The notes under the pieces: generated by a model
Database searches by the model: none
Seen by the model: the letters and a program-made list of their open reading frames with translations, nothing else
What the model was told of the DNA's origin: nothing
DNA from: Candidatus Omnitrophota bacterium
Lineage (GTDB): Bacteria > Omnitrophota > Gorgyraeia > Gygaellales > Profunditerraquicolaceae
Length of the DNA: 64,000 nt
Direction of reading: 5' to 3'
NCBI GenBank assembly: GCA_043800555.1
Contig: JAZDMX010000003.1
Location: 175,531 to 239,530 of the forward strand
In this document: piece after piece, positions 2 to 17,506 of the stretch
Numbering within the stretch: position 1 is the stretch's first letter
Layout: every line of letters begins with the position of its first letter
Translations under genes and position numbers: made by a program

Positions 2-205
2 TACCTGGAATGGTTAAACAATGTCGATGTTTTAGTTGAAGACAGCGAAGAAAATATCCTCCAGGCCAAAGAATTAGGGCTAAAAGGGATATTGGTAGCC
101 AAACCCTGGAACAAAAGCGGTTTATCGATTAAAGCGGCTTTGGCGCAAATAAATAAAATCATTGAGGAAGAGCCGGTTCTTTTGTTGCCGAAAGCAAAAC
201 GGTAA
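2..205 (+). CDS. C-terminal fragment of a HAD-superfamily hydrolase (NT5C/5'-nucleotidase-like); the 5' end lies upstream of the window
   Basis: Frame 2 is open from the window edge to TAA at 203-205. It reads ...VLVEDSEENILQAKELGLKGILVAKPWNKSGLSIKAALAQINKI..., typical of a HAD C-terminal cap/core. Confidence 0.35.
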   Translation, partial: YLEWLNNVDVLVEDSEENILQAKELGLKGILVAKPWNKSGLSIKAALAQINKIIEEEPVLLLPKAKR

Positions 206-227
206 AGTTATCCGGGTAAATAACGCT

Positions 228-2027
228 ATGGTTAAATTGTCCGATTATGTAATGCAGTATATCGCCGATTTAGGCGTGAAGAATGTTTTTATGCTCCCCG
301 GGGGCGGCTGTATGCACCTGGTGGATTCCTTGGGCCAAAACAAGAAATTAAAGTTTATCGTTAATTTGCATGAGCAGGCTTGCGCGATTGCCGCCGACGC
401 TTATAGCCAATATACCGGGAATCTCGGCGTAGCTTTAGTTACTACCGGGCCCGGAGGTACCAACGCGATTACCGGAGTGTGCGCTTCCTGGATCGAATCT
501 AGCCCTGTTTTGATTATTTCGGGCCAAGTCAAGAGGGCGGATTTAATGGCTGGCAAGGGGGTCCGTCAAATAGGCCCGCAGGAGATAGATATCGTTACCT
601 TGGTTAAACCGGTTACCAAATATGCGGTTACCGTTATGGACCCTAAAGACATAAGATACCATTTGGATAAGGCTGTTTATTTGGCCAAAGAAGCGAGGAT
701 GGGCCCGGTTTGGCTGGATATACCGTTGGATGTCCAGGGGGCGATTATCGATGAAGGTAAATTAAGAAAATTCATCAAGCCGAAACCGGTTAACCGGGAA
801 AAGGGCCTGGATAATAAGATTAACCGGCTAATAAAATTAATTAATCAATCTCATAGGCCGGTTATCTTAGCCGGTAACGGCATTAGGCTGGCCGGGGGAA
901 TTAGCCAATTCCGGAAATTGATAAAGCTGGCAAAAATCCCGGTATTAACCACTTGGAGGTTTCTGGATGTCTTAGGCCAAGACCACCGTTTATATGCCGG
1001 CAGGCCGGGTTCTATAGGGCAAAGAGGGGCAAATTTCGCGCAGCAAAATGCGGATTTGATAATTTGCATCGGGGCAAGGTTGGATGTGGCGCAAGCCGCC
1101 TATAACTATGATAATTTTGCCAGGAAAGCCAAGAAAATAATTGTCGATATCGATGAGCATGAAATAGGCAAAATACCCGTTAAAATCGATATGAAATTCA
1201 ATATGGACGCCGCGATGTTCTTAACCGCATTTTTAGCTAAGGCCAGCCGTATAAGATTAGATACCGGAAAGTGGCTGAACAGGTGCCGGGCCTGGAATAA
1301 GAAATACCCGGTTACCTTAGCCGAATTTAAACCAGAAAAGAAATACGTTAATACTTATGTGTTGGTTGACGCTTTGTCTGATGCCCTGGCTAAAGATGAC
1401 GTGATTGTCCCGGGCAGCTCCGGCAGCTGCAGCGAGATAACCATGCAGGCGTTTAAGGTTAAGCAGGGGCAGAGAATATTTAATTCTCCGGGGTTAGGCT
1501 CGATGGGGTTTGGCCTTCCGGCTAGTATTGGGGCTTGTTTTGCCAGCGGCAAGAAGCGGACTATTTGCCTGGTGGGAGACGGAGGGTTACAGCATAATAT
1601 TCAGGAATTAGAATTATTAAAAAGGCACCAGCTGCCGGTTAAAGTATTCGTTTTAAATAATAATGCTTACGCTTCCATCAGGGCCACTCATCAAAAGTTC
1701 TTTAACGGGCGCCTGACTGGCTGCGATCCTTCTTCTGGCTTGACTTTGCCGGATACGGTAAAAATAGCAGGCGCCTACGGGATAAAAACCTTTAGATTGA
1801 AGAATCAGGATGGAATCGGCAGTAAGATTAAAGAGGTTCTTGATTATGACGGGCCTGCGGTATGCGAGGTCATGGTCAATCCGGATTTGCTGACTCAACC
1901 TAAAGTGTCGTCGGAGGCTAAGCCGGATGGCCGGATGGTTTCTAAACCCATGGAAGACCTTTGGCCGTTTTTGGAGAGGAAAGAATTTAGGGCCAATATG
2001 ATTATAAGGCCTTTAGGGGCAAAATGA
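228..2027 (+). CDS. Thiamine-diphosphate-dependent enzyme of the acetolactate-synthase/YerE family; a candidate for attaching a two-carbon branch to an NDP-sugar
   Basis: ThDP-binding signature GDGG...(24)...NNN (LVGDGGLQHNIQ...VFVLNNNAYASI). The N-terminal pyrimidine-binding domain GGGCMHLVD is present. The track ORF begins at 162, but the first conserved residues start at the ATG at 228 (MVKLSDYVMQYIADLG). Confidence 0.8.
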   Translation: MVKLSDYVMQYIADLGVKNVFMLPGGGCMHLVDSLGQNKKLKFIVNLHEQACAIAADAYSQYTGNLGVALVTTGPGGTNAITGVCASWIESSPVLIISGQVKRADLMAGKGVRQIGPQEIDIVTLVKPVTKYAVTVMDPKDIRYHLDKAVYLAKEARMGPVWLDIPLDVQGAIIDEGKLRKFIKPKPVNREKGLDNKINRLIKLINQSHRPVILAGNGIRLAGGISQFRKLIKLAKIPVLTTWRFLDVLGQDHRLYAGRPGSIGQRGANFAQQNADLIICIGARLDVAQAAYNYDNFARKAKKIIVDIDEHEIGKIPVKIDMKFNMDAAMFLTAFLAKASRIRLDTGKWLNRCRAWNKKYPVTLAEFKPEKKYVNTYVLVDALSDALAKDDVIVPGSSGSCSEITMQAFKVKQGQRIFNSPGLGSMGFGLPASIGACFASGKKRTICLVGDGGLQHNIQELELLKRHQLPVKVFVLNNNAYASIRATHQKFFNGRLTGCDPSSGLTLPDTVKIAGAYGIKTFRLKNQDGIGSKIKEVLDYDGPAVCEVMVNPDLLTQPKVSSEAKPDGRMVSKPMEDLWPFLERKEFRANMIIRPLGAK

Positions 2028-2893
2028 AGATACTGATAACCGGTGGCAGCGGCTTTATCGCCAGGAACCTCTTTGAAGGCCTGGAGGCTGATTACGAAGT
2101 CATCTCGCGCAATAGCAAAGAGCTTGACCTTTTGGATGCCGAGAGAGTCTTTGACTATATCAAGTCCGGAAGTTTCGATGCGGTAATTCACGCTGCTACC
2201 TATGACGCCGCGCCAAGGTATTCCACGAAAGACCCGGCAAAAGTCCTGGAATATAATTTAAGGATGTTTTTTAACATCGCCAGGTGCGCAGATTCCTTCG
2301 GGAAGATGATCTACTTTGGTTCGGGCGCGGAGTTTTCCAGGGAAAATTGGGCGCCTAGGATGAAAGAGGCGTATTTTGACCGGCATATCCCCCGGGACCA
2401 GTATGGCTTCTCAAAATACGTGATGACTAAATACGCGCAGGTAGCCGGCAATATATACAATCTCAGGCTTTTTGGCGTATTCGGAAAATACGATGACTGG
2501 CGGACCCGCTTTATCCCTAATGCCTGCTCGCAAGCCGTTTTGGGATTACCCGTAATCATTAATCAAAACAGGTTTTTTGATTTTATTTACATCAAAGACC
2601 TGGTAAAAATCGTCAGATGGTTTATTGCCCATAAGCCGAAAGAGAAAATATATAATGTTTGCTCGGGGGAAGTAATTGATTTTAAATCTATAGGCGAAAT
2701 GATCGTTAAAACATCGAATAAGAAACTGGATATAATGGTTGAGTCCGATGGGTTGGCCAGGGAATATAGCGGGGATAACGCGCTGCTTTTGAAGGAATTG
2801 AACGGTTTTAAATTCAGCCCGATGGATGATTCCGTAAAAGAGCTGTACCATTGGTATGATCAGAACGCTTTAATTTTTAAAGATAAGAGATGA
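2024..2893 (+). CDS. NAD(P)-dependent epimerase/dehydratase (extended SDR); probably an NDP-sugar 4-reductase or epimerase
   Basis: N-terminal Rossmann motif ILITGGSGFIARNL. ATGA overlap with the upstream gene. Length 289 aa. Confidence 0.8.
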   Translation: MKILITGGSGFIARNLFEGLEADYEVISRNSKELDLLDAERVFDYIKSGSFDAVIHAATYDAAPRYSTKDPAKVLEYNLRMFFNIARCADSFGKMIYFGSGAEFSRENWAPRMKEAYFDRHIPRDQYGFSKYVMTKYAQVAGNIYNLRLFGVFGKYDDWRTRFIPNACSQAVLGLPVIINQNRFFDFIYIKDLVKIVRWFIAHKPKEKIYNVCSGEVIDFKSIGEMIVKTSNKKLDIMVESDGLAREYSGDNALLLKELNGFKFSPMDDSVKELYHWYDQNALIFKDKR

Positions 2894-3951
2894 CTCAAGA
2901 GGCCAGCGGCGTGCCCGGGAACATTAAGAAGGTATCGTTAGTAAAGGGGAAGAATAGTTACGATAATATCAAGCGGTCTTTGGATCTTATCAGGCCGGAT
3001 TTAGATGGCATAAAGGGCAAGAAAAATATCCTTCTAAAGCCTAATTTGACCGCCACTAAAAACAGGTTTGCGAATACTGACGCAAGATCCGTGGAGGCGG
3101 TTTTAGATTTCCTGCTGGATAATTTTCCTCAACTGCGCCAAAGCGAGTTTACGATACTGGAGGGCAGCGGAAGCGCTTTTTACGAAAAAACAACTACCCG
3201 GGAAGTTTTCAGGAAATTCGGTTATTTAGATTTATGCAAGAAATACAAGAATGTGAAGTGCGAATTCATCGAAGATTTCAAGGATTTCTCCGAGATACAG
3301 ATTATGTCTATCGCCGGGCATGAGAAAATAAAAGTTATAAGCCGTTTTCTGGACTTTGATTTCCGGGTGTCGGTTGCCGTGCCGAAGACGCATAACTATG
3401 CGATTGCCACCTTTGGGATAAAGAATATGGCGGGTTTGATTAAACAGGAGGACAAATCCATGTTGCACGGGTTGCGCACACCCAGCGCCCCCAACGCGAA
3501 AACGGTATTTACCTATTTGCCGACATCCTGGATTTCCTGGTTACGGCGAAAATCTCCGGATTTAGCCAATTTTATTTTCAAAAAATCAATCGCTTATCTC
3601 AAGGCGACAAAAGTCATCCATCATAATATTGCCGAATTGGCAAAATTTACCTGGCCGGACCTTGTGGTGCTGGATGGATTTTGCTGTATGGACGGTAACG
3701 GCCCGGTGGACGGTTTCCCTGTAAATTTGGAGGCTGCCGTGAGTTCTACCGATCCCCTTAAAGCAGACGGTATCGGCGCCAGGCTGTTGGGGATTGAGCC
3801 GGAAGATATCGGGTATCTTTATTATCTTCAGGAGGCCGGTTTGGGCAGCTATTCCTTGGATGGCCTCCGGGGAGACAAATTGGAAGAAGTCAGGCAAAAC
3901 TTTAAGCTGCATCCGACATACAGTATCCAAAAGAAATGGAAGGATAATTAA
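2890..3951 (+). CDS. DUF362 family protein (predicted Fe-S/redox-associated protein)
   Basis: Characteristic ILLKPNL motif and overall DUF362-like composition. Translationally coupled to the upstream gene. Confidence 0.55.
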   Translation: MTQEASGVPGNIKKVSLVKGKNSYDNIKRSLDLIRPDLDGIKGKKNILLKPNLTATKNRFANTDARSVEAVLDFLLDNFPQLRQSEFTILEGSGSAFYEKTTTREVFRKFGYLDLCKKYKNVKCEFIEDFKDFSEIQIMSIAGHEKIKVISRFLDFDFRVSVAVPKTHNYAIATFGIKNMAGLIKQEDKSMLHGLRTPSAPNAKTVFTYLPTSWISWLRRKSPDLANFIFKKSIAYLKATKVIHHNIAELAKFTWPDLVVLDGFCCMDGNGPVDGFPVNLEAAVSSTDPLKADGIGARLLGIEPEDIGYLYYLQEAGLGSYSLDGLRGDKLEEVRQNFKLHPTYSIQKKWKDN

Positions 3952-4000
3952 TCCTGGCGCAGGAGAAATCAGCCGGTCATGAGCTGAGGAGGCCGTTTAT

Positions 4001-5137
4001 ATGGTAATCAATAACTGCAGGCTATGCGGCAATGAATTTTTCCCCAACCCTCTGTTGCGTTATGAGAATATGCCTAAGTCTGCCCAGTTTTTGCCCGATT
4101 CTTCCTCAATCGGAAGCGACAAAGGGGTTAGCCTGGAGGTTTGCCAGTGCTCCGGATGCGGGTTGGCGCAGTTAAATAGCGCCCCTGTCCCTTATTATAA
4201 AGAAGTAATCCGGGCGGTTGGTTTTTCCGAAGAAATGAAACAGTTCCGGAGAAATCAATTCGCCGGTTTAATCAAGAAATATGCCCTTAAAGGCAAGAAG
4301 ATTATTGAGATAGGCTGCGGGAGAGGGGAGTACCTTTCTATCTTGGGAAAATTAGGCGTAGATGCCTATGGCTTGGAGTATTCCGAAGAAGCGCGAAAGG
4401 ACTGCGTCAATAGCGGGCTTAGAGTTTCAAAGGGTTTTGTTGATAGAGGCGATTGCGCCTTAAAAGAGGGGCCGTTTGAGGCGTTCTTTATCTTAAGTTT
4501 TCTTGAACATCTGCCGGATTTAAACGGGGCGCTTAGAGGTATCTATAATAATCTGGTTGAACATTCGGTTGGGCTGGTCGAAGTCCCGAATTTTGATATG
4601 ATCTTACGCAACAATCTTTTTTCCGAATTCATAAGCGACCACCTTTTTTATTTTACCAGGCAAACTTTAAAAACCGCCTTGGAGCTGAACGGATTTGAAG
4701 TCATGCAATGTAAAGAGATTTGGAATGATTATATAATTTCCGCGGTCGTTAAGAAGAAAGTCGCGTTGGATATAGCGCATTTTTATGAATTCCAGGCAAA
4801 GCTTAAGGCTGAAATCGAGGCATACATCCTTCGTTTTAAGGATCAGGGGGTAGCTATCTGGGGCGCCGGGCATCAAGCCCTGGCAGTTATTTCCTTGGCC
4901 GGTTTATCCGGAAAGATAAAATATGTCGTCGATTCAGCCACTTTTAAGCAAGGTAAGTTCACTCCGGCTACGCACATCCGGATAGTTCCTCCGAGCGCGC
5001 TTAAGGAAGACCCCGTAGGCGCGATTATTGTGATGGCTGCCAGCTATTCGGATGAAGTTGCCCGGATCATCCTCAAGAAGTTCGGCAGAAGGATGCGGGT
5101 TTGCGTATTGAGGGATTTTAGGTTAGAAGATGCCTGA
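4001..5137 (+). CDS. NDP-hexose C-methyltransferase (TylC3-like): N-terminal Zn-ribbon, class I SAM methyltransferase core and C-methyltransferase C-terminal domain
   Basis: Zn-ribbon CRLCGNEF...CQCSGCGLAQ. SAM motif IIEIGCGRGEY. C-terminal Rossmann region VAIWGAGHQALAVISLAGLSGKIKYVVDSATFKQGKF. Confidence 0.8.
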   Translation: MVINNCRLCGNEFFPNPLLRYENMPKSAQFLPDSSSIGSDKGVSLEVCQCSGCGLAQLNSAPVPYYKEVIRAVGFSEEMKQFRRNQFAGLIKKYALKGKKIIEIGCGRGEYLSILGKLGVDAYGLEYSEEARKDCVNSGLRVSKGFVDRGDCALKEGPFEAFFILSFLEHLPDLNGALRGIYNNLVEHSVGLVEVPNFDMILRNNLFSEFISDHLFYFTRQTLKTALELNGFEVMQCKEIWNDYIISAVVKKKVALDIAHFYEFQAKLKAEIEAYILRFKDQGVAIWGAGHQALAVISLAGLSGKIKYVVDSATFKQGKFTPATHIRIVPPSALKEDPVGAIIVMAASYSDEVARIILKKFGRRMRVCVLRDFRLEDA

Positions 5138-5660
5138 AGATTTGGTAAGCGTTATAGTCCCTGTGTATAACAGCGAGCAATTCCTTTGCCGTTGCCTGGA
5201 TAGCGTTATCGGCCAGGAGTATAGGAATATCGAAGTTGTGCTTGTAAATGACGGCTCAACCGATAAGAGCGCGGAATTATGCGAGTGCTATGCGCGCAGG
5301 GATAAAAGGGTCAAGCTGATACATAGTAAAAATAACGGGCCGGCGCAAGCCAGAAATATCGGAATTGAGAATGCGGTCGGAGATTTCATATTTTTTGTTG
5401 ATTCCGATGATTTTATCGAAAATAACGCGTTAAGCGTATTGATTGATAATTACAGAAGGACAAACGCGGACGTAATCATCGGGGATGCCCGCAGCGTTAA
5501 AGACGGTATTTTAGGCCCCGGGTATAAAGGCTGTTTTTTAGAGACCAAGCTATTAGTAAGGCAGGAAATAGCCGATTACGCCAGGCAGTATTTAAAAAAG
5601 CCGAACAGATTCACGTTATTTGCCTATTCCTGGGAAGGTTATTTAAATCTTCTACCCTAA
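5130..5660 (+). CDS. Family 2 glycosyltransferase, N-terminal part of an interrupted gene
   Basis: GT2 N-terminus VSVIVPVYNSEQFL...VVLVNDGSTDKS with DXD motif FFVDSDDF. The ORF ends at 5660 in the middle of the GT2 fold. Confidence 0.75.
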   Translation: MPEDLVSVIVPVYNSEQFLCRCLDSVIGQEYRNIEVVLVNDGSTDKSAELCECYARRDKRVKLIHSKNNGPAQARNIGIENAVGDFIFFVDSDDFIENNALSVLIDNYRRTNADVIIGDARSVKDGILGPGYKGCFLETKLLVRQEIADYARQYLKKPNRFTLFAYSWEGYLNLLP

Positions 5661-5671
5661 AGAATAACCAT

Positions 5672-6187
5672 GTGTTTTTTAACACCGATTTGCATACATT
5701 TGAAGATGTGGCCTTTAATTTTGATTACTTAAACTACGCGGAAAAAGTATTGTTCTTGAAAGAGCCCGTATACAACCATTTGCTCCACAATAATTATCTG
5801 TCGGCGACCATGGCGGTATCGGACAAGCCTATGGCTTTATGCGGGTATAGGCAGGCCCTTTATAATATAGGCGAATTCCTTAGGCGGGCCAATTCCGGGG
5901 CGGACGTAATCAGGGAAACCGGGCATGCGTTTGTTTGCTTGACTATAATTCAATTAGTCCGCGCCTGCGGGCAGATTAATAACGCAAACAGGCACAAGAT
6001 TACCGGGTTTATCCGCGAATTAATTAACGACCCGGAACTTAAGAAAAACCTGGGTTATTATGCCCCTTCAAGCGGCGATAGCAGGGTCCTTCCTTTTTTA
6101 ATGAGGTTTAAGCTTGTATGGTTGATCGTTTTGGTTTCTAGGTATAAGGCCGGAAAAAGGTACAAAAAGGCAGGCGTTATTAAATGA
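5672..6187 (+). CDS. Family 2 glycosyltransferase, C-terminal part; continuous with 5130..5660 after a -1 frame change
   Basis: The -1 frame is open from 5528 and reads ...SSTLKNNHVFFNTDLHTFEDVAFNFDY..., a typical GT2 C-terminal half. The track places a GTG start at 5672. Confidence 0.65.
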   Translation: MFFNTDLHTFEDVAFNFDYLNYAEKVLFLKEPVYNHLLHNNYLSATMAVSDKPMALCGYRQALYNIGEFLRRANSGADVIRETGHAFVCLTIIQLVRACGQINNANRHKITGFIRELINDPELKKNLGYYAPSSGDSRVLPFLMRFKLVWLIVLVSRYKAGKRYKKAGVIK

Positions 6188-7419
6188 ATTTTATGAAGGC
6201 TTTATCGGGAGAAGAAATTATTGAGCGCATTAAGGCAGCGGGGGCGCCGGTAATAATATTCGGCGCCGGGGTTGCCGGGGAGGCGCTCTATTATGCCTGC
6301 CTTGAGGCGGGAATCAAGATCGCCTCTTTTTGCGACAATAATATCAATAAGGTTAAATTCCGCCTATGCGATACAAAAGTGGTCCATACCCGGGATTTAA
6401 AAGCGCGATATAAAGATGCCTTGTTCTTGATATCTGCTGCCGATATCCAGGACGTGATTAGCCAATTGCGGGATTTAGGGCTATCCAAGTGGTACCCAGC
6501 TAGCCCGTTATTGAGGGGTTTTGACGCACATCGGCATAAATTCAGCGCCCCTTTGGATTTTGTCGAATACGCGGTAGCTACTTGCATCCTATGCCAGGAG
6601 AGTTATTTAGACCCGGATAAGCTGTTTTTAAGGAGCCTGGACATTATTGTTACGGAGCGTTGTTCCCTGAAGTGCGTTAATTGTTCCAACCTTATGCAGT
6701 ATTACGGCAAGCCCGTTGATTGCGGTATCAATGAATTAATGCTGTCTATCGGCAGGTTTTGTGATATTATCGATGAGATTAACGAATTCCGGGTGATCGG
6801 CGGAGAGCCGTTTATGAATAAGGATTTTCATTTAATCGTCAAGAGGCTGGTTGATGAGCCTAAGGCCAAAAAAGTGGTTGTTTATACCAATGGCACAATC
6901 GTCCCCGCTGCGGGCCAGATGGAGCCTTTAAAGAGCGAAAAGGTGCTTTTTATTATTACCGATTACGGCAAGTTATCGAGAAACTTAGATAGCCTGGCAA
7001 GCGCCTTGAAACAAAACAGGATAGCTTATTACGTGCAGAAGGCCCAGGGATGGACTGATTGCGCTAAGATTATAGAGCACCATCGCACCGAAAAAGAGCA
7101 GAAAGAATTATTTAGAAACTGTTGCGCCAAGAATACTTTTACTTTGTCTGACGCTAAATTGTACAGGTGCCCGTTTTCCGCCAATTGCGACAGGCTCCGG
7201 GCGGTTCCCGCGCAGGAAGATGATTCTGTGGATATTTTTCGGTATTCGGGAGAAGGAAAAGATACGCTAGAAGCGAAAAACAGGATCAGGGCCTTTTTAA
7301 CGCAGAAGCAATACCTTGGGGCATGCGATTATTGCAATGGCAGGCCGTTTACGGCATCCGAAATAACTCCTGCTGTTCAAACGCCTAAGCCCTTAGAGTA
7401 CGATATCAAACAAAAATGA
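6184..7419 (+). CDS. Radical SAM / SPASM-domain enzyme with an N-terminal C-methyltransferase-type NDP-sugar-binding Rossmann domain
   Basis: CX3CX2C motif CSLKCVNC. C-terminal Cys-rich SPASM/twitch region (YRCPFSANCDRL...CDYCNGRP). N-terminal VIIFGAGVAGEALYYACLEAGIKIASFCDNNINKVKF resembles the PF08484-like domain of 4001..5137. Confidence 0.8.
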   Translation: MNFMKALSGEEIIERIKAAGAPVIIFGAGVAGEALYYACLEAGIKIASFCDNNINKVKFRLCDTKVVHTRDLKARYKDALFLISAADIQDVISQLRDLGLSKWYPASPLLRGFDAHRHKFSAPLDFVEYAVATCILCQESYLDPDKLFLRSLDIIVTERCSLKCVNCSNLMQYYGKPVDCGINELMLSIGRFCDIIDEINEFRVIGGEPFMNKDFHLIVKRLVDEPKAKKVVVYTNGTIVPAAGQMEPLKSEKVLFIITDYGKLSRNLDSLASALKQNRIAYYVQKAQGWTDCAKIIEHHRTEKEQKELFRNCCAKNTFTLSDAKLYRCPFSANCDRLRAVPAQEDDSVDIFRYSGEGKDTLEAKNRIRAFLTQKQYLGACDYCNGRPFTASEITPAVQTPKPLEYDIKQK

Positions 7420-9242
7420 GAAAGAAGCTGAATTATCTTTTGGTGATGCCGCGCTTGGTCCAGAATATCGGAGACGGTTATTCGTTTCCGCTGGGCATCG
7501 CCTATATATCATCGAGCATGAAAAAGGCAGGCTATAACGTTTGGGCGGTTAATCTGAACCACCGGCAGGGAGAGATTGACCGGTTAATCAGGGATGCCAT
7601 CCAGGAGCATAAAATAGATGTCGTGGCTACGGGAGGCTTGTCGTTCCAATACAATACGGTCAAAATGGTAATTGAAGCAGCTAAGCGCGCCAAGGGACAG
7701 GTCATTACTATTGTCGGAGGGGGAATAATCTCCGGTGATCCCGGGCCGGCCATGGAGGCCTTGGAATACGCGGATTACGGGGTTATCGGAGAAGGAGAGG
7801 TTACTATAAATGAATTATGCCGGGCGCTTGAGTCTGGCGAAGAACCCGGTAAGGTTGACGGAATAATTTACAGGAAGGGCAACGCTTTCAAGACGACAAT
7901 GCCCCGTCGGGAGATAGAGAATATCGATTCCATGCCCCTCCCGGATTATCAGGGCTTTGAGATTGAGAAATATTTATCCTCCGCGCCCCCGGGCATAAGC
8001 GGGTTAAACAAACAAAATACCGTTTTTATGCTCGCCAGCCGTTCCTGCCCGTATAATTGCACGTTTTGTTTCCACACTACCGGCAGGAAATACCGCCAGA
8101 GGTCATTGGATAGTTTTTTTGAAGAACTTGATTATATGGTTTCCAAATATAATATCGAATTCGTATGTTTGGCTGACGAGCTTTTTGCCCGCAACATTAA
8201 AAGGGTAAGGGAATTCTGCGAAAGAATTAAGAAGTACGATATTAGATGGTGGGCGCAATTCAGGGTAGACGACATAACCCCGGAGTTATTGAATATCCTT
8301 AAAGATGGCAGGTGCGAGGTTATGTCGTTTGGCCTGGAGAGCGCGGATAACCGCGTGTTGAAAAGCATGCGTAAGGGGACTACGGTGGAGCAGATCGAGC
8401 GGACGCTCAAGCTTGTTTATGATTCCGGGATATCCTTTGAAGGGGCATTTATATTCGGCGATATCGCCGAGACCCCGGAAACCGCCGCTAATACCCTTGA
8501 CTGGTGGCGCCGGCATTCCGAATACAGGATCACCTTGAACCTGATTACGGTATATCCGGGTTCATATCTTTATAAATACGCCTGCCAGAATAAGATTATC
8601 AAGGATAGGGCCCGGTTTTTAAAGGAAGGATGCCCGCAGATAAATGTCTCTAAGCTTACGGACCAGGAACTCTCCGGATTAATCAAGCATTTTATGGATG
8701 CCCCGGTGAGCCTGACCAAGCCGCTTGCCTCGGCAAGCCTTAAAGGTATCGATTATAAAACCGGCAGGATCGGCATAAATGGCCTATGCACGCTTTGCAA
8801 GCAGGAGAATGATTGGGAGAATATAAAACTTTTTACCATGAATTTTCTTTCTTGTAAGGGCTGCGGCCAGAAATACAACGTCCCGTTTATCGAAAGCCTC
8901 CGGCTGAATATAGAAAAGAATATAACGGGTTTATTGAATAAATACGGTAAGGTGGCGGTGTGGGGGATAAATTACCATACCGTTGATTTGTTCAAGAATT
9001 CCGTAGCCCTAAAGGACAAAAACATATATCCGGTTGATATCTCGGAAACAAAACGGAAGATGGATTTGTTCGGGAAGAAGATTCACCCTCCTGAAATTAT
9101 AGACGCCGAGGATATCAGGGTAGTGGTCATTCCGGTTCCGGTATATTTTACGCAGATCAAATCGCAAATTGAATCAAGCCATAAAAATGTTGCGGATATA
9201 ATCGATATCTGCAGGCTCACTGACCCCGGTTATAAGCTATAA
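7416..9242 (+). CDS. Cobalamin-binding (class B) radical SAM enzyme fused to a Zn-ribbon and a C-methyltransferase C-terminal-like domain
   Basis: B12-binding domain (VVATGG...GEGE). rSAM motif CPYNCTFC. Zn-ribbon CTLCKQEN...CKGCGQKYN. C-terminal VAVWGINYHTVDLF...YPVDISETKRKMDLFGKK aligns with the C-terminus of 4001..5137. Confidence 0.85.
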   Translation: MRKKLNYLLVMPRLVQNIGDGYSFPLGIAYISSSMKKAGYNVWAVNLNHRQGEIDRLIRDAIQEHKIDVVATGGLSFQYNTVKMVIEAAKRAKGQVITIVGGGIISGDPGPAMEALEYADYGVIGEGEVTINELCRALESGEEPGKVDGIIYRKGNAFKTTMPRREIENIDSMPLPDYQGFEIEKYLSSAPPGISGLNKQNTVFMLASRSCPYNCTFCFHTTGRKYRQRSLDSFFEELDYMVSKYNIEFVCLADELFARNIKRVREFCERIKKYDIRWWAQFRVDDITPELLNILKDGRCEVMSFGLESADNRVLKSMRKGTTVEQIERTLKLVYDSGISFEGAFIFGDIAETPETAANTLDWWRRHSEYRITLNLITVYPGSYLYKYACQNKIIKDRARFLKEGCPQINVSKLTDQELSGLIKHFMDAPVSLTKPLASASLKGIDYKTGRIGINGLCTLCKQENDWENIKLFTMNFLSCKGCGQKYNVPFIESLRLNIEKNITGLLNKYGKVAVWGINYHTVDLFKNSVALKDKNIYPVDISETKRKMDLFGKKIHPPEIIDAEDIRVVVIPVPVYFTQIKSQIESSHKNVADIIDICRLTDPGYKL

Positions 9243-9269
9243 GCGAAAAACTCAAAAACGAGGCCGAAA

Positions 9270-9767
9270 TTGAAAATCAAGGGAATAGTTAAGGAGTTAG
9301 AGGCCCGCATTAAGGACCCGGCAAAGGGCCTGCCGGAAGAAGTTTTCCTTTTTATGAGCAGGATCACGCCTTTGGTTAACGTGGACCTGTTGATCAAGAA
9401 TAAACGAAAACAGACGCTATTGACCTGGAGAGACGACGGTTATTTCCCCGCCGGTTGGCATATCCCGGGAGGCATAGTCAGGTATAAGGAACCGATAGCG
9501 CGGAGGATTAAAGCTGTTGCTGCCGCGGAATTAGGGGCCAAGGTCAGATGCAGCGCTACCCCTTTACTAATCCGGGAAGTCGTGATCCCGGCATTAAGAA
9601 ACCGGGCCCACGCTATTTCGTTTCTATACGAGTGTTCATTGGCCAGCCTGCCTGCAAAGGGGCTTATGTATGCCGGAGGTTGTCCGAAACAGGGGCAATG
9701 GGCCTGGCATGAAAAATGCCCCAAAGATTTAATTTCTGTCCACCGGATGTACCGGAGGTTCATATGA
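9270..9767 (+). CDS. gmm: NUDIX hydrolase of the GDP-mannose mannosyl hydrolase (Gmm/WcaH) type
   Basis: ITPLVNVDLLIKNKRKQTLLTWRDDGYFPAGWHIPGGIVRYKEPIARRIKAVAAAELG aligns with the E. coli Gmm N-terminal region. The canonical NUDIX-box glutamates are only partly retained. Confidence 0.65.
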   Translation: MKIKGIVKELEARIKDPAKGLPEEVFLFMSRITPLVNVDLLIKNKRKQTLLTWRDDGYFPAGWHIPGGIVRYKEPIARRIKAVAAAELGAKVRCSATPLLIREVVIPALRNRAHAISFLYECSLASLPAKGLMYAGGCPKQGQWAWHEKCPKDLISVHRMYRRFI

Positions 9768-11587
9768 AAAATAACGGGGTTAAGCTTAACTTTTTGCTCG
9801 TAATGCCCCGGCTTGTGCAGAGTATCGGCGACGGGTATGTTTTCCCTCTGGGAGTGGCCTACGTCTCTTCGAGCATGAAAAAGGCGGGGTTTCGTGTTTT
9901 CACGTTGAACCTTAACCACCGCCAGGGGGAGGTTTTCGAAATTATCCAAAAGGCGGTCAAGGAGCACGGTATAGACGTAGTTGCTACCGGAGGGCTTTCT
10001 CCTCAATACCACTTGGTTAAAAGCGTTATAGAGTCGGCGAAAAAGGCCGATAGCCGGATTGTTACTATTGTCGGAGGCGGGATTATTTCTTCCGACCCGG
10101 AAACCGCCATAGAAGCGCTGGAATTTGCCGATTTTGGCGTAATCGGCGAGGGAGAAGCGACTATGTGCGAATTGGCTTCTTGCCTGGAAGCCAAAGGGGA
10201 TTTCTCCAAGGTTGACGGGCTTATCTATAAAGAAGGCCAAGGGTATAAGAAGACAAACTCCCGTAAGGACATCGAGGATATCAGCAGCATCCCCTGGCCG
10301 GATTACGAAGGGTTTGATGTTGAGCAATATCTTGAAACTCCATCAGCCGGGTTCGCCGGGATAAATAAAAAACGGGTGATTTGCATGTTAGGGAGCCGTT
10401 CCTGCCCTTTTAATTGCACTTTTTGCTGCCATACGATCGGTAAGAAATTCCGCCGTCGCTCACTGGATGATTTTTTTGCCGAACTGGATTATTTGGTTTC
10501 CCGTTATAGGATAGAATATGTTTCCATGGCCGATGAGGTATTTGCCCCGGATTTAGCCAGCGCCAAGGAATTTTGCGGCCGCATAAAGAAATATAGTATT
10601 TCCTGGTATGCTGATTTCAGGATCGACAAGGTCAAGCCGGAACTTCTCGGGCTCCTTAAGGAAAGCGGGCTGGAAGTGATGTTTTTCGGCATAGAGAGCG
10701 CGGATAACCGGATCCTTAAGAGTATGCGCAAGGGTATCACTATTGAGCAGATTGAAAAGGTCCTGAAAATGGTATATGAATCCGGAATCGCCAGCTACGG
10801 TTGTTTTATTTTCGGAGATATCGCCGAAACGCTTGAAACTGCCCAGAATACCCTGAATTGGTGGAAGAAGCATAGGGAGTACGCGGTGCATCTTACCCTG
10901 GTTAAGCCGTTTCCGGGCTCTTATATTTATCAATATGCCTGCCAGAAAGGCATTATCAAAGACCGGATCCAATACCTTAAGGATGGCTGCCCGCAGGTGA
11001 ATATTTCCCTGATGGATGATAAGGAATTCGCCTATATCGTGCGCCAAATATCGGAATCCTTGGGCCTGATGGATGCCTTGGGCTCGGTAGAGCTCTTAGG
11101 CCTTGACCCCTTGATGGGCAGAGAAACGATATCCGGGACCTGCGCTAAGTGTTCGCAAAGAAATATCTGGGAAAACATAAAGCTATTCTCTATCGATTAT
11201 ATTTATTGCAGCCATTGCGGGCAGAAATACGAGATCCCTAACCCTCCCCAGCTTAGGGCAAACCTGGACAGGAATATATCCGCATTATTGAGGAAATACG
11301 GCAAGGTCGCTATCTGGGGGATGACCCTTTCGGTTATGGACCTCTTTAAGCATTCAAGAATACTCGCCGATCCCAATGTTTTTCCTATCGATATCTCCGA
11401 GAGCAAGAGAAAAACGGATTTTTTCGGTAAAATAATTTATGCCCCGGATATCTTAGGCGCAGAGAATATTCCGGTTGTGGTAATTGCCGTCCCCTCGCAT
11501 GGCGGGCAAATATCCTGCCAGGTCAAGGAAAACCATCCGGGGGTAACGGAAATAATCGACATTTGCCAATTAGTCGGGTTCAACTAG
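9764..11587 (+). CDS. Cobalamin-binding radical SAM enzyme fused to a Zn-ribbon and a C-methyltransferase C-terminal-like domain (tandem paralog of 7416..9242)
   Basis: ATGA overlap with gmm. The start ATG is at 9764 (MKNNGVKLNFLLVMPRLVQSIGDGY). rSAM motif CPFNCTFC. Zn-ribbon CAKCSQRN...CSHCGQKYE. C-terminal VAIWGMTLSVMDLF...FPIDISESKRK. Confidence 0.85.
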   Translation: MKNNGVKLNFLLVMPRLVQSIGDGYVFPLGVAYVSSSMKKAGFRVFTLNLNHRQGEVFEIIQKAVKEHGIDVVATGGLSPQYHLVKSVIESAKKADSRIVTIVGGGIISSDPETAIEALEFADFGVIGEGEATMCELASCLEAKGDFSKVDGLIYKEGQGYKKTNSRKDIEDISSIPWPDYEGFDVEQYLETPSAGFAGINKKRVICMLGSRSCPFNCTFCCHTIGKKFRRRSLDDFFAELDYLVSRYRIEYVSMADEVFAPDLASAKEFCGRIKKYSISWYADFRIDKVKPELLGLLKESGLEVMFFGIESADNRILKSMRKGITIEQIEKVLKMVYESGIASYGCFIFGDIAETLETAQNTLNWWKKHREYAVHLTLVKPFPGSYIYQYACQKGIIKDRIQYLKDGCPQVNISLMDDKEFAYIVRQISESLGLMDALGSVELLGLDPLMGRETISGTCAKCSQRNIWENIKLFSIDYIYCSHCGQKYEIPNPPQLRANLDRNISALLRKYGKVAIWGMTLSVMDLFKHSRILADPNVFPIDISESKRKTDFFGKIIYAPDILGAENIPVVVIAVPSHGGQISCQVKENHPGVTEIIDICQLVGFN

Positions 11588-11599
11588 AAAGAGGATAGT

Positions 11600-12667
11600 A
11601 TGGCCGCTCAACACAGAATAAAGGCAAGCGAAATTGCGAAACGGGAACAACTCAAAAGGCAAAAACCTTATGTCTATGAGAAAATCATGAAGTATGACGA
11701 AAAAGTAAAGAACGGGGAAAGTATCGCCATACTTCAGTTCCAGTATGATTACGCCTGTAATTTCGCCTGCCAGCATTGTGATATAACCCGCTTACGGGGG
11801 AAAAACAAAAGCAGGTTTTTTACAATTAGCGACGTAAAGGAACTTTCCCGGCAAGCCGATGAAATGGGCCTGGCGCATATCGTCGTAACCGGAGGGGAGC
11901 CGCTGGTTTTCCCGGATTTCGACGCTATCGTTAAAGCGATTGACCCGCAGAAGTTCTATATTACTTCGGATACCAATGGCTGGTTTTTGGATGCCGCCAG
12001 AGCCAGGCATTTAAAAAATATCGGCCTGGATAAAATCCAGCTTAGCCTGGATAGCCTCTCGGCTGCCGAACATGATGCGTTCCGGCGCAAACCCGGCTCT
12101 CACCAGAGGGCCCTTAAGGCAATTGACGCTTCTTTGGATGCGGGATTAAATATTATATTAGCTACCGTAGTTACGAAGCAGAGAATCAGGTCGGAGGAAT
12201 TTATTGAGTTCTTGGAATTTGCCAAGAAAAAAGGCGTAGCGGTATTCGTGACTTACGCTAAGCCTGTCGGAGAGTGGGAAGCTAACTTCGATGTCTTGGT
12301 TACAAAAAGCGATATGGATTATTTGAGGGGGCTGGAGGGGCAATATAATGTTTTTACGCATTTGACTCCTTCCTACGGCCTTGATTTAGGCTGCATAGCG
12401 GTCAAAAGAATGGTTTCTATCACTAAATACGGGGACCTGATGCCTTGCCCTTATATCCACGTTTCGTTAGGGAATTTTTTTGAGGAACCGTTAAAGGATA
12501 TTATCGAAAGGGGCTTAAAGATCAGGTTTTTCGGCAAGCATCTGGATACCTGCCTGATAGCCGAAGACAGGGAATTTATCAGCGAGTATGAAACTAAGAA
12601 GATCTACGGCAAGCCTCTGCCGGTCCCTTATGCCGAGGTGTTTACAAAGAATGATTTTATTGATTAA
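11600..12667 (+). CDS. Radical SAM enzyme (non-B12), possibly with a partial twitch/SPASM C-terminus
   Basis: CX3CX2C motif CNFACQHC. GGEPLVFPDF glycine-rich SAM-binding motif. A good SD (AAGAGGA) precedes the ATG. Confidence 0.8.
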   Translation: MAAQHRIKASEIAKREQLKRQKPYVYEKIMKYDEKVKNGESIAILQFQYDYACNFACQHCDITRLRGKNKSRFFTISDVKELSRQADEMGLAHIVVTGGEPLVFPDFDAIVKAIDPQKFYITSDTNGWFLDAARARHLKNIGLDKIQLSLDSLSAAEHDAFRRKPGSHQRALKAIDASLDAGLNIILATVVTKQRIRSEEFIEFLEFAKKKGVAVFVTYAKPVGEWEANFDVLVTKSDMDYLRGLEGQYNVFTHLTPSYGLDLGCIAVKRMVSITKYGDLMPCPYIHVSLGNFFEEPLKDIIERGLKIRFFGKHLDTCLIAEDREFISEYETKKIYGKPLPVPYAEVFTKNDFID

Positions 12668-13978
12668 ATGAAAAACAAGATCAAAGGGAAAATATTTAAA
12701 TTAATCAAGGAATTGTATAAGGCCCAAGCGGGAAGAAAAGAATTTGTCCCCGGCAAAGGGGCAATTAATTACGGCGGCAGGATCTATGATTCCAAAGAGC
12801 TGATAAATCTAGTTGATGCATCGCTTGATTTTTGGCTTACTGCCGGAAACTACGCCCGGGAATTTGAAGGGAAGCTCTCAGGCTTTCTGGGCGTTAAATA
12901 TTGTTTATTGGCTAATTCCGGCTCATCCGCTAACCTTTTGGCCTTAACCGCGTTAACTTCACCGTTGTTAAAAGAAAAGCGGTTAAAGCCGGGTGACGAA
13001 GTAATCACCACTGCCTGCGGTTTTCCTACCACCCTGAACCCGATACTGCAGAATAACCTTGTGCCCGTATTTATTGATGTAGAGCTGGGCAACTATAATA
13101 TTCAGGCAGAGAAGATCGAAAAGGCTATCACCAGGCAAACAAGGGCGATCTTTACCGCCCATACCCTGGGTAACCCGGTAAACATAGATATAGTCAGGAA
13201 AATAGTTAAAAAGCATAATTTGTACTGGGTTGAGGATAATTGCGATAGCCTTGGGTCCAAATATAGGGGTAGCTATACCGGGACATTCGGGGATATTTCC
13301 ACTTGCAGCTTCTATCCTCCTCACCATATAACTATGGGAGAAGGAGGGGCGGTTTTAACAAACAACCCGCTATTTAAAAGGATTGTAATGTCTTTGCGGG
13401 ACTGGGGAAGGGATTGCTGGTGCGAGCCGGGCCAGGACAATACTTGTAAGAAAAGATTCAGCCGGAAATTCGGCCCGTTGCCTTACGGCTATGACCACAA
13501 ATATGTTTATTCCCATATAGGCTATAATTTAAGAGTTACCGATATGCAGGCGGCTGTCGGCTGCGCGCAGTTAGAGAAATTGCCCGGATTTATTGAAGCC
13601 AGGAAACGCAATTTTAAGTTTCTATACGGTATGCTTAAGGAACACGGCGATCATTTTATCCTGCCGCAGGCGCAGGAACATTCCGATCCCAGCTGGTTTG
13701 GTTTTTCGATCCTTCTAAAAGATACGGCACCGTTTAATAGGGCGGATATTGTTAGTTATTTGGAAGGCAGGAAGATAGCCACGAGAATGCTCTTCGGGGG
13801 TAACTTATTGAAGCAACCGGCCTATAAAAACATAAAATACAGGGTGGCGGGAAATTTAAGGAATACGGATTTGGTAATGAACAACCTTTTTTGGATAGGG
13901 GTCTACCCCGGGCTTACCGGCCCCATGCTTGATTATATAGGAAAGTCCTGGGATGCTTTTCTTAAAAAGGCAAAATGA
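12668..13978 (+). CDS. rfbH: NDP-4-keto-6-deoxyhexose 3-dehydrase (RfbH/DdhC/E1 family, PMP-dependent and [2Fe-2S]-containing)
   Basis: Near full-length alignment to Salmonella RfbH: CLLANSGSSANLLALTALTSP, SFYPPHHITMGEGG (His replaces the aminotransferase Lys), and the Fe-S motif DCWCEPGQDNTCKKRF (C-x-C-x7-C retained). Confidence 0.9.
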   Translation: MKNKIKGKIFKLIKELYKAQAGRKEFVPGKGAINYGGRIYDSKELINLVDASLDFWLTAGNYAREFEGKLSGFLGVKYCLLANSGSSANLLALTALTSPLLKEKRLKPGDEVITTACGFPTTLNPILQNNLVPVFIDVELGNYNIQAEKIEKAITRQTRAIFTAHTLGNPVNIDIVRKIVKKHNLYWVEDNCDSLGSKYRGSYTGTFGDISTCSFYPPHHITMGEGGAVLTNNPLFKRIVMSLRDWGRDCWCEPGQDNTCKKRFSRKFGPLPYGYDHKYVYSHIGYNLRVTDMQAAVGCAQLEKLPGFIEARKRNFKFLYGMLKEHGDHFILPQAQEHSDPSWFGFSILLKDTAPFNRADIVSYLEGRKIATRMLFGGNLLKQPAYKNIKYRVAGNLRNTDLVMNNLFWIGVYPGLTGPMLDYIGKSWDAFLKKAK

Positions 13979-16774: not shown

Positions 16775-17506
16775 ATGGGGGAAATTGTCAATACCGGAGA
16801 ACGGATACTTTTGGAGCAAGAAACGCCTTTAATGGTCGCCCGCCATTTTTGCGCCTATAAATTTGCCAGGGATTTTGTCAAGGATAAGAGCGTTTTAGAC
16901 GCAGGCTGCGGAGAAGGCTATGGCTCGAATTTCTTGGCCGAATACGCCAAAGCGGTTTGGGGGCTCGATTACGATAAAGATATCATCATTTATGCGCAAG
17001 GTAAGTATAATAAGGTTAACCTGCAATTCCTGGCTTTAGATATCAAAGACCTTAGCAGCCTGCATAAGAAATTCGATGTAATATGTTCATTCCAGAATAT
17101 AGAACATATCCGGGATACGGGCAAGTTCTTAAATGACGCCTTGAGCCTGTTGAATGACGATGGCGTATTTATCTGTTCTACCTGTAATATGAAAGATGCT
17201 TCTCCCGGCAGGAAAGAGCCCTCCAATAGGTTCCATGTCAAAGAGTACCTTTTTGACGAGTTTAGAGGCTTGCTCCAGGGGCATTTTAAGAATGTAGAGA
17301 TCTTCGGTTTAAACAGGGGCTTGGCCTTAAAGGCCTTCCGCAGGCTGAAGAAAATCGGCTTGTTTAATTTCTTGCCGGAGAAAATCAATCCGGTTAAGAT
17401 ATTTTTTGCAAAAGCAGGGTGCGGGTATTTCTTTTGGTCCAGGATAAATCTGGATAATTGCCTGGATTTTCTTGCTGTCTGCAGGAAACAGGAGGCCATT
17501 TCTTAA
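16775..17506 (+). CDS. Class I SAM-dependent methyltransferase
   Basis: Motif I VLDAGCGEGYGSNFLA. Confidence 0.75.
   Translation: MGEIVNTGERILLEQETPLMVARHFCAYKFARDFVKDKSVLDAGCGEGYGSNFLAEYAKAVWGLDYDKDIIIYAQGKYNKVNLQFLALDIKDLSSLHKKFDVICSFQNIEHIRDTGKFLNDALSLLNDDGVFICSTCNMKDASPGRKEPSNRFHVKEYLFDEFRGLLQGHFKNVEIFGLNRGLALKAFRRLKKIGLFNFLPEKINPVKIFFAKAGCGYFFWSRINLDNCLDFLAVCRKQEAIS

Follow-up and report, generated by a model that had tools for sequence, protein, structure and literature searches.

In biology, unactivated carbon is methylated mainly by class B (cobalamin-dependent) radical-SAM enzymes. A substrate is known for few of these enzymes, and how the substrate is recognized is understood in few solved cases. 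GenK and GenD1 C-methylate aminoglycoside sugars, so that sugar carbons are within the reach of the class; to our knowledge, the known sugar-methylating members use free pseudo-oligosaccharides and not nucleotide-activated sugars. Fom3 of fosfomycin biosynthesis is a class B methylase whose substrate, cytidylyl-2-hydroxyethylphosphonate, carries a cytidine nucleotide handle. We regard Fom3 as the nearest functional precedent for class B recognition of a CMP/CDP-conjugated substrate, although that substrate is a phosphonate and not a sugar and we know of no TcaB9-type module in Fom3. Cobalamin-dependent radical-SAM enzymes vary in their C-terminal domains, which contribute to substrate binding (PMC9204698). 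The class is not known to methylate unreactive carbons of a nucleotide-activated sugar.

The sugar C-methyltransferases TcaB9, TylC3, KijD1 and MtmC carry PF08421, a class I methyltransferase domain and PF08484. In TcaB9 the catalytic sugar-contacting residues are located in the middle domain. We analysed a window of 64,000 nucleotides from a Candidatus Omnitrophota contig in which such a methyltransferase gene is followed by two tandem genes for B12 radical-SAM enzymes. All features given below with coordinates are on the + strand.

Architecture of the tandem paralogs

Open reading frame, translation and Pfam matches show paralog A (7416..9242) to be a 608-aa B12-binding/radical-SAM enzyme; at its C-terminus it has a Zn-ribbon and PF08484-like module. 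The cobalamin-binding Rossmann domain (7482..7817, aa 23-134; PF02310, E 5e-16) is followed by the radical-SAM core (8037..8504, aa 208-363; PF04055, E 1.3e-17, 65 bits), which contains the CX3CX2C motif CPYNCTFC (8046..8069, aa 211-218). Further downstream are the Zn-ribbon CTLC-x18-CKGCGQKY (8787..8876, aa 458-487) and the PF08484-like Rossmann domain (8892..9221, aa 493-602) with the conserved motifs KVAVWG, DISETKRK and IDICRL. Paralog B (9764..11587, 607 aa) has the same four-part architecture: Pfam places the B12-binding (aa 23-134) and Radical_SAM (aa 208-363) domains in both paralogs, with PF02310 also above its gathering score in B (E 6.6e-19), and the CX3CX2C motif (10403..10426, aa 214-221), the ribbon CxxC-x18-CxxCGQxY (11141..11230, aa 460-489) and a Rossmann-like domain (about 11246..11572) are present. 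Both the tandem open reading frames and this order of domains had been described in the initial annotation and are found as described. The start ATG of B overlaps the stop codon of the preceding open reading frame (ATGA); an alternative longer frame with a start at 9716 is possible.

The two paralogs are 57% identical over their full length. A is 100% identical to P0008, a protein of a Candidatus Omnitrophota MAG, and B is identical to P0126, carried by the same MAG contig; the B-type orthologs form their own subgroup (P0005-P0007). Among 77 homologs C211, C215 and C218 are invariant, and so are all four cysteines of the ribbon (C458, C461, C480 and C483 in A). In the AF2 model of A (pLDDT 90.8, pTM 0.90) the ribbon region is beta-rich and leads directly into the last ~110 aa, which form a beta-alpha Rossmann-like domain (pLDDT 95.6). 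Neither Pfam nor NCBIfam detects a methyltransferase domain in the paralogs. Generic Zn-ribbon Pfam families match weakly in 20 of 37 family members.

A Foldseek search with the model of A returned TsrM, OxsB, CysS, TokK and MgmA as best matches (E 1e-21 to 1e-16), and the related radical-SAM enzyme AprD4 was also among the top matches. The likeness covers the N-terminal 440 aa; the structural alignments end at about residue 440. TokK, CysS, TsrM and MgmA/QCMT share the N-terminal B12 Rossmann domain, the CX3CX2C radical-SAM barrel and the helical cap with the paralogs but, unlike these, have no Zn-ribbon and PF08484-like module. Judged from sequence and predicted structure, both paralogs are class B radical-SAM enzymes with predicted cobalamin binding. 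Neither reaches a curated NCBIfam cut-off, the scores being 3-8 times below those of every class B model. The cyclase BchE, HpnJ, for which a ring contraction is proposed (TIGR03471, 139-141 against 577.6 bits), and the P-methylase PhpK (TIGR04479, 123-136 against 600) are the best models, all far under their cut-offs, and TIGR04295 (B12_rSAM_oligo) gives 73-74 against 400.

The ~610-aa family is large, with more than 120 clusters at 90% identity that are all at least 56% identical to A, and was found only in metagenome genomes, from many phyla. The module itself was found in 280 clusters at 50% identity. Whereas the last 177 aa as query gave no more than 7 fragments, the homologs stem from a full-length search and a search of representatives; as the contig scan used one peptide pattern and gave 10 loci, the taxonomic range is a lower bound. 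No NCBIfam equivalog model and no solved structure in the PDB represents the family, and the papers searched in full text describe no B12 radical-SAM enzyme that has an NDP-sugar as substrate or contains PF08484. Within these three sources there is thus no characterised enzyme with this combination of domains, in agreement with the initial annotation.

Relationship of the C-terminal module to sugar C-methyltransferases

The methyltransferase encoded at 4001..5137 is of the TcaB9/TylC3/MtmC/KijD1 type, with a Zn domain, a class I methyltransferase domain and PF08484 (Pfam PF13489, PF08484 and a weak PF08421); phmmer against the PDB finds TcaB9, MtmC and KijD1 at E ~1e-17. It had been claimed that the C-terminal domain of the paralogs aligns residue by residue with the PF08484 domain of this neighbour. 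The pairwise alignment does not carry this claim, since BLASTP of the paralog C-terminus against the PF08484 part gives a weak match (E 0.004, 23% identity). The underlying homology stands: profile-profile and structure comparison, though not Pfam, show the Rossmann-like domain at the C-terminus of the paralogs to be a homolog of the PF08484 domain in the neighbouring C-methyltransferase.

A Pfam domain assignment of the C-terminal residues yields no PF08484; at E <= 10 the family is absent from A, B and the 37 family members as well as from the isolated C-terminal 151-154 aa. A HMMER profile of the 37 C-terminal domains run against PDB sequences did not find TcaB9, KijD1 or MtmC; its top matches, MtrB and Elf1, were dismissed as noise or generic Zn ribbon. 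The profile similarity of the C-terminal ~150 aa to the PF08484 domain, on which the initial reading depended, is significant. With hhalign, a diverse profile of the module and the family of the neighbouring methyltransferase align over 104 columns (Prob 98.4%, P 6.5e-15), whereas the negative controls give P 0.009 and 0.23; a close-family profile reaches 87-92% probability. When the middle domain was removed from the methyltransferase family, a local alignment with the whole module extended over 146 columns (P 3.7e-16) and paired both CxxC motifs and the Rossmann part. The module is thus collinear with the C-terminal Rossmann-like domain of the TcaB9/TylC3/KijD1/MtmC enzymes and its putative counterpart at their N-terminus, the four-Cys Zn domain; what the paralogs lack is the SAM domain in between, which bears the catalytic residues.

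The Zn part alone matched the methyltransferase N-terminus only in an 8-residue CxxC stretch, and hhalign of the module with the single sequence of a TcaB9 fragment was not significant. Foldseek of the module against the PDB gave nothing at E <= 0.001; KijD1 ranks 44th in that list, yet has the best TM-score and rmsd there. A transitive link is provided by P0376, which matches the module profile at E 7.7e-11 and PF08484 at E 0.005. W516, D541, S543 and K546 are conserved residues of the module, and D-x-S-x-x-K and W-G are conserved in both the radical-SAM and the methyltransferase families. The module was also found on sulfotransferase-like proteins of a flagellin-glycosylation island. On this sequence evidence the module is portable: one module is joined to three different catalytic domains, all from sugar-modification clusters.

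The surrounding gene cassette

Upstream of the methyltransferase gene lie the genes for a TPP-dependent acetolactate-synthase-like enzyme (162..2027; Pfam TPP_enzyme N, M and C) and a short-chain dehydrogenase of the epimerase/RmlD type (2024..2893; Pfam), likely a ketoreductase of the pathway, with counterparts at 57-62% identity in loci L001, L003, L005 and L009-L012. The TPP enzyme scores under every acetolactate-synthase equivalog cut-off of NCBIfam, and we take it to be similar to YerE, a branching enzyme that adds a two-carbon branch. Directly 5' of paralog A and joined to it by an ATGA overlap is the gene of a 411-aa radical-SAM enzyme (6184..7419; Pfam). Its orthologs (53-56% identity in L001, L007 and L008) go with two-paralog cassettes. 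The N-terminus of this enzyme may carry the domain of the module too; hhalign of the module with this protein, as a single sequence or a 4-sequence alignment, was not significant. Between the paralogs a 165-aa Nudix-like protein is encoded (9270..9767), which has a weak NCBIfam match to GDP-mannose mannosyl hydrolase and is 46-48% identical to its counterparts in L001 and L002; the homolog in L005 has PF00293. Paralog B is followed by a 355-aa radical-SAM/SPASM enzyme (11600..12667; Pfam) and an RfbH/E1-type CDP-6-deoxy-4-hexulose 3-dehydrase (12668..13978; NCBIfam NF011936, 703 bits against a cut-off of 423). Natural fusions to the B12 radical-SAM protein exist for the Nudix protein (P0104) and the SPASM radical-SAM enzyme (P0102).

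Conservation of the cassette was counted in 14 distinct loci from Omnitrophota, Lentisphaerota/Victivallaceae, Fibrobacterota, Planctomycetota, Magnetococcales and Magasanikbacteria, a partner being a gene within 10 kb of the B12 radical-SAM gene. The C-methyltransferase and the SPASM radical-SAM enzyme are each present in 13 of the 14 loci, the TPP enzyme and the Nudix protein in 12 each and RfbH in 10; the number of B12 radical-SAM genes per cassette is 1-3. A CDP-glucose 4,6-dehydratase scores over its cut-off, and the nucleotidyltransferases of the cassette have glucose-1-phosphate cytidylyltransferase as best match. An FNR-like reductase, a NeuB-cupin fusion and GT2, GtrA and PMT_2-type enzymes, which create lipid-linked sugars, are also encoded.

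Judged by its gene content, the cassette is a conserved CDP-sugar pathway. It resembles the yersiniose pathway, which leads from CDP-glucose via the 4,6-dehydratase, E1/E3 and the TPP enzyme YerE to the reductase, in that a cytidylyltransferase-like enzyme, CDP-glucose 4,6-dehydratase, RfbH/E1, an FNR-like reductase, a TPP enzyme and a short-chain reductase are present. Beyond these it has the C-methyltransferase, one to three B12 radical-SAM enzymes, the SPASM radical-SAM enzyme, the Nudix protein and the NeuB-cupin protein, and the product would therefore be considerably more elaborate than yersiniose. Whereas TylC3 and TcaB9 use dTDP, CDP is the more likely nucleotide here.

Proposed reaction and alternatives

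Because the adaptor domains sit on B12 radical enzymes inside a conserved CDP-sugar pathway, methylation of unreactive nucleotide-sugar carbons is a likely function. From these data we infer a nucleotide-sugar-binding role of the PF08484-type domain and methylation as the chemistry, as well as the carbon attacked and the fate of the product. More specifically, we propose as the most likely function that a branched 3,6-dideoxyhexose linked to CDP is C-methylated in a cobalamin-dependent radical reaction, the C-terminal module being the nucleotide-sugar adaptor, a proposal to which we give an even chance of being right. The cytidylyltransferase, CDP-glucose 4,6-dehydratase and RfbH/E1 would make a CDP-activated 3,6-dideoxy-4-keto-hexose, which the YerE-like enzyme would branch and the classical methyltransferase would C-methylate next to the keto group. 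The module of the paralogs may then grip the nucleotide end of the CDP-sugar and set the sugar between the [4Fe-4S]/SAM site and cobalamin. While TcaB9-type enzymes proceed through an enolate next to the 4-keto group, the paralogs would use radical attack: the 5'-deoxyadenosyl radical would take hydrogen from an unactivated sp3 carbon, for example the C-6 methyl or the two-carbon branch, methylcobalamin would deliver a methyl radical, and a second SAM would re-methylate cob(I)alamin. The finished sugar would probably be transferred to polyprenyl phosphate (GT2) and on to a surface glycan (GT-C, PMT_2-like). Since A and B represent old subtypes, each conserved in its own right, they probably differ in the position that they methylate or act one after the other.

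The module could hold a nucleotide sugar while the enzymes perform other radical chemistry, such as ring contraction or rearrangement (OxsB, the proposed HpnJ reaction), C-C bond formation or cyclisation (BchE), epimerisation or dehydration (AprD4). No feature of the paralog sequences tells a methylase apart from an enzyme of other class B chemistry. BchE, HpnJ and PhpK as top NCBIfam models give no clear methylase signature, AprD4 and OxsB are among the structural neighbours, and a SAM C-methyltransferase as well as two further radical-SAM enzymes are already encoded in the cassette. Scores so far under the cut-offs, however, hold no functional information, and one to three copies per cassette are easier to reconcile with an additive decoration, for example methylation, than with one obligatory rearrangement. 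According to PMC11659888, methylation is also the commonest reaction of cobalamin-dependent radical-SAM enzymes and most characterised class B enzymes are methylases. We therefore consider other chemistry rather unlikely. We would put at the same low level a module that serves as a structural, dimerisation or docking domain (for the C-methyltransferase, the SPASM enzyme or a reductant), the substrate being non-nucleotide, for instance a polyprenyl-phosphate-linked sugar or an assembled glycan. The enzymes for lipid-linked sugars are in keeping with this, as is the glycine-rich dinucleotide loop, which is not conserved in the module (WGINYH). On the other hand, the module recurs on its three catalytic domains in sugar-modification clusters, and the motifs common to both families suggest a shared ligand and not a family-specific partner. 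The Nudix fusion, too, argues for a nucleotide substrate, since the nearest named family of the Nudix protein hydrolyses a nucleotide sugar.

Two further readings are much less probable. That the C-terminal similarity merely reflects a generic Rossmann fold, and the TylC3-type link a coincidence of neighbouring genes, is contradicted by the profile-profile and collinear module alignments and is very improbable. An anaerobic Mg-protoporphyrin cyclase of the BchE type or a YgiQ-type enzyme has a negligible chance: JGI names several homologs so and BchE is the top NCBIfam match, but its model (TIGR02026) gives only 154.6 and 140.1 bits against a cut-off of 481, and the cassette has no tetrapyrrole genes and a conserved sugar context. 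We rejected these annotations on score and gene context.

Returning to nucleotide-sugar methylation, a wider interpretation appears possible, if somewhat less probable than the reaction proposed above. The Zn-ribbon and PF08484-type domain would be a portable nucleotide-sugar adaptor on at least three engines (class I methyltransferase, B12 radical-SAM and sulfotransferase-like), and TcaB9-type enzymes would have arisen by insertion of a methyltransferase domain into it. The ~610-aa family would comprise the first class B radical-SAM enzymes on nucleotide-activated sugars; their substrate, a branched deoxysugar similar to yersiniose and linked to CDP, would be methylated, possibly repeatedly, at unactivated carbons.

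The family thus obtains a concrete, testable substrate hypothesis, namely CDP-3,6-dideoxy-4-ketohexose derivatives. Its module escapes every current Pfam model; being common to sugar C-methyltransferases and sulfotransferase-like enzymes, the adaptor could predict nucleotide-sugar substrates of other orphan enzymes. Should this hypothesis be confirmed, the enzymes would also lend themselves to the synthesis of C-alkylated nucleotide sugars. The cassettes span Omnitrophota, Lentisphaerota, Fibrobacterota, Planctomycetota, Magnetococcales and CPR bacteria and imply that uncultured anaerobes bear on their cell surfaces an undescribed deoxysugar with heavy C-branching and C-methylation. If the adaptor reading is true, uncultured anaerobic phyla would build heavily C-alkylated sugars into their surface glycans.

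Domain architecture of paralogs A and B

The genes for paralog A (7416..9242, 608 aa) and paralog B (9764..11587, 607 aa) are situated on the plus strand, as are all genes between position 162 and about 33.5 kb of the window, which form a glycan-biosynthesis region. The window itself derives from a metagenome-assembled genome of Candidatus Omnitrophota. At both genes start and stop overlap with the upstream ORF in an ATGA sequence. Paralog A is 100% identical to the NCBI protein cluster P0008, and paralog B corresponds to P0126 from the same contig; over their full length the two proteins share 57% identity. Pfam identified a B12-binding domain (residues 23-134) and a Radical_SAM domain (residues 208-363) in both. 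In an alignment of 77 homologs the CX3CX2C motif of paralog A (C211, C215, C218) and all four cysteines of its C-terminal CxxC-x18-CxxCGQxY motif (C458, C461, C480, C483) were found to be invariant. AlphaFold2 modeled full-length paralog A with a pLDDT of 90.8 and a pTM of 0.90, and residues 440-608 with a pLDDT of 95.6. In the predicted C-terminus, a beta ribbon with five strands precedes a Rossmann-like beta-alpha domain with four. From the ORFs, the Pfam domains, the invariant motifs, and the models it follows that the order of domains described in the initial annotation (B12-binding, radical-SAM, zinc ribbon, Rossmann domain) is real at these coordinates.

The window encodes a third enzyme with B12-binding and radical-SAM domains (17507..18904, 465 aa), but without the C-terminal module. 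Among the NCBIfam models it matches best, far under the cut-off, the one for ladderane-type lipid B12 radical-SAM enzymes. Its gene is flanked by those of a class I methyltransferase (16775..17506) and of a 682-aa protein for which Pfam gives no match (18909..20957).

Relationship of the C-terminal module to TcaB9-type methyltransferases

The initial annotation had aligned the last domain with the PF08484-like domain of the neighboring C-methyltransferase (4001..5137), which is a true TcaB9/MtmC/KijD1 homolog (phmmer E ~1e-17). The Pfam assignment proposed there as a check yielded no PF08484 match in the full proteins, in the isolated C-termini, or in any of 37 diverse family members, and an HMMER profile of the C-terminal domain did not retrieve TcaB9 from the PDB. 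With BLASTP the similarity to the neighboring methyltransferase was marginal, though in correct register (E 0.004, 23% identity). Comparing the close family with the methyltransferase family by hhalign gave 87-92% probability. The query profile was then rebuilt from 94 diverse representatives, obtained by searching 1.8 billion proteins exhaustively with HMMER, and reached 98.4% probability (P 6.5e-15, 104 columns). As controls, the rebuilt profile was aligned to the protein's own B12-Rossmann and radical-SAM region (P 0.009) and to the window's third B12 radical-SAM enzyme (P 0.23). In addition, the representative P0376 matches both the module profile (7.7e-11) and PF08484 (0.005), connecting the two transitively. 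The homology is thus established by profile-profile comparison, whereas Pfam and HMMER searches do not detect it. The structural comparison by Foldseek was less sensitive: KijD1 headed the list by TM-score and rmsd, yet with an E-value of 0.12.

For the ribbon alone, hhalign found no similarity to the methyltransferase N-terminus past the CxxC. We also cut the central SAM-methyltransferase domain out of the alignment of the methyltransferase family, so that residues 1-66 and 255-378 remained. Against this trimmed alignment the whole module aligned locally over 146 columns (hhalign Prob 98.7%, P 3.7e-16); the alignment starts at the first CxxC, includes the second, and extends into the Rossmann part, with CxxC pairing with CxxC in order. 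The best reading of these alignments is that the module corresponds to a TcaB9-type enzyme without its catalytic methyltransferase domain; its ribbon is probably equivalent to the zinc domain of the methyltransferases.

Sulfotransferase-like P-loop proteins also carry the module C-terminally (P0351; 6639..8180 in locus L016 and 6550..8091 in locus L017), and three more of them, P0396, P0359, and P0391, have the Rossmann part without the ribbon. The genes with the module lie in a flagellin-glycosylation island together with GT2, SDR, radical-SAM, and methyltransferase genes, which in L016 and L017 adjoins flagellin, FlaG, and FliD. Among the B12 radical-SAM proteins several putative natural fusions were identified, with the SPASM radical-SAM enzyme in P0102 (987 aa) and with the Nudix-like protein in P0104 (792 aa); P0354 contains the Rossmann part twice, and P0032 extends into the start of a second paralog. 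Judged from its occurrence on both protein types and from these fusions, the module behaves as a portable unit of sugar-modifying enzymes.

Upstream of paralog A, the 411-aa radical-SAM protein 6184..7419 begins with a stretch (VIIFGAGVAGE...FCDNNINKVKF...) resembling a Rossmann domain of the PF08484/PF22674 type. Its L001 ortholog has a weak PF22674 match, and hhalign with four sequences only was not significant (P 0.02). If the resemblance is genuine, a domain of this type would be common to four enzymes of the cassette.

Distribution and gene neighborhood

The architecture of about 610 aa is common. At least 120 clusters (90% identity level) share 56% or more identity with paralog A, the alignment covering at least 75% of it and, for nearly all, at least 94%. 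With the module profile 280 clusters (50% identity level) are retrieved; most of these proteins measure 600-660 aa and end in the module. All named sources are metagenome-assembled genomes, assigned to Omnitrophota, Deltaproteobacteria, Oligoflexia, Magnetococcales, Victivallaceae/Lentisphaerae, Fibrobacteres, Planctomycetaceae, and Magasanikbacteria. None of the curated NCBIfam models claims the family, the scores for BchE, HpnJ, and PhpK being 3-5 times under their cut-offs. Paralogs A and B are separately conserved subtypes, and one to three B12 radical-SAM genes occur per cassette.

The genomic context was established from 14 distinct loci by counting neighbors within 10 kb of a B12 radical-SAM gene. 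A TcaB9-type C-methyltransferase and a SPASM radical-SAM enzyme (11600..12667 in the window) are each present in 13 loci, an acetolactate-synthase-like TPP enzyme (162..2027) and a Nudix-like protein each in 12, and RfbH in 10. Several neighbors are missing because two of the loci lie on contigs just 6.6 and 7.3 kb long. The RfbH of the window (12668..13978) scores 703 bits against a curated cut-off of 423, and the dehydratase of related loci 464 bits against the CDP-glucose 4,6-dehydratase cut-off of 278. Nucleotidyltransferases of about 260 aa match glucose-1-phosphate cytidylyltransferase best (260-264 bits, cut-off 300), and in locus L005 an FNR-like reductase follows RfbH. Set against the known biosynthesis of 3,6-dideoxyhexoses and yersiniose, where the Liu laboratory has reportedly worked on E1/E3 and YerE, these annotations identify the cassette as the route to CDP-4-keto-3,6-dideoxyglucose with subsequent TPP-dependent two-carbon branching. 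Genes of the GT2, GtrA, and PMT_2 types suggest that the product may be moved via polyprenyl phosphate onto a surface glycan.

The Nudix-like protein between the paralogs (9270..9767) shows 46-48% identity to its L001 and L002 counterparts and a weak match to GDP-mannose mannosyl hydrolase. Pfam finds no Nudix domain in this copy; PF00293 is found in the L005 ortholog. In all five loci with gene tables the cassette includes a fusion of about 510 aa of a sialic-acid-synthase-like NeuB and a cupin (L001 6556..8115, L002 5554..7062, L003 1821..3356, L004 5534..7054, L005 3467..4993), which scores far under the NeuB and PseI cut-offs. This gene is absent from the window, whose first gene is the TPP gene, so that the window edge probably cuts the cassette. 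A DUF362 protein (2890..3951) lies inside the cassette of the window between the reductase and the C-methyltransferase, and has no counterpart in the 14 related loci. In the Magnetococcales locus L004 the cobalamin biosynthesis genes CbiG, a TP_methylase, and CbiA (548..3958) are located directly upstream of the sugar cassette, which includes the B12 radical-SAM gene.

A frameshift near 5633 interrupts the GT2 gene 5130..6187, whose neighbors are the genes of the C-methyltransferase and of the 411-aa radical-SAM enzyme. Compared with the intact L001 ortholog (358 aa), the frame of 5130..5660 covers residues 13-178 and that of 5672..6187 residues 179-357 (tblastn E 1.9e-100); the gene is either a pseudogene or affected by an assembly error. 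Outside the glycan region, 41078..43372 encodes a 764-aa protein whose N-terminal half resembles MFS transporters and which also contains a spermidine/spermine-synthase domain.

Proposed function and placement among known enzymes

The variable C-terminal domain of structurally solved cobalamin-dependent radical-SAM enzymes aids substrate binding (PMC9204698), and methylation is the commonest reaction of this class (PMC11659888). On these grounds we infer that the module would bind nucleotide, anchoring the CDP part of a pathway intermediate, while the radical-SAM/cobalamin pair would methylate an unactivated sp3 carbon. A classical methyltransferase, requiring an adjacent keto group, could not reach such a carbon; candidates would be the 6-methyl or the two-carbon branch. 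The separate subtypes and the variable gene number fit an additive, position-specific decoration.

We considered two alternatives to this proposal. As far as the sequence tells, the same substrate could undergo a radical reaction other than methylation, which we regard as unlikely, methylation being the commonest reaction of the class. Equally unlikely in our view is a substrate that is not a nucleotide, the module then having a structural or docking role.

All testable criteria place both paralogs in the class B radical-SAM superfamily. They share an accessory module with the TcaB9/TylC3 family but are not members of it, because its defining methyltransferase domain is missing. The nearest functional precedents for the proposed methylation of a CDP-sugar are GenK and GenD1, which methylate sugar carbons on free aminoglycosides, and Fom3, whose cytidylylated substrate is a phosphonate. 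Full-text searches of the literature turned up no B12 radical-SAM enzyme described as acting on a nucleotide sugar or as bearing the module, in line with the earlier statement that no characterized enzyme with this domain combination is known; in a 2026 review of B12-dependent radical-SAM enzymes the words 'sugar', 'CDP', and 'zinc' never occur. What is new is a recognizable putative substrate adaptor on known catalytic machinery, within a conserved, undescribed pathway. The hypothesis is specific, can be tested directly, and would, if true, widen class B chemistry to include nucleotide sugars.
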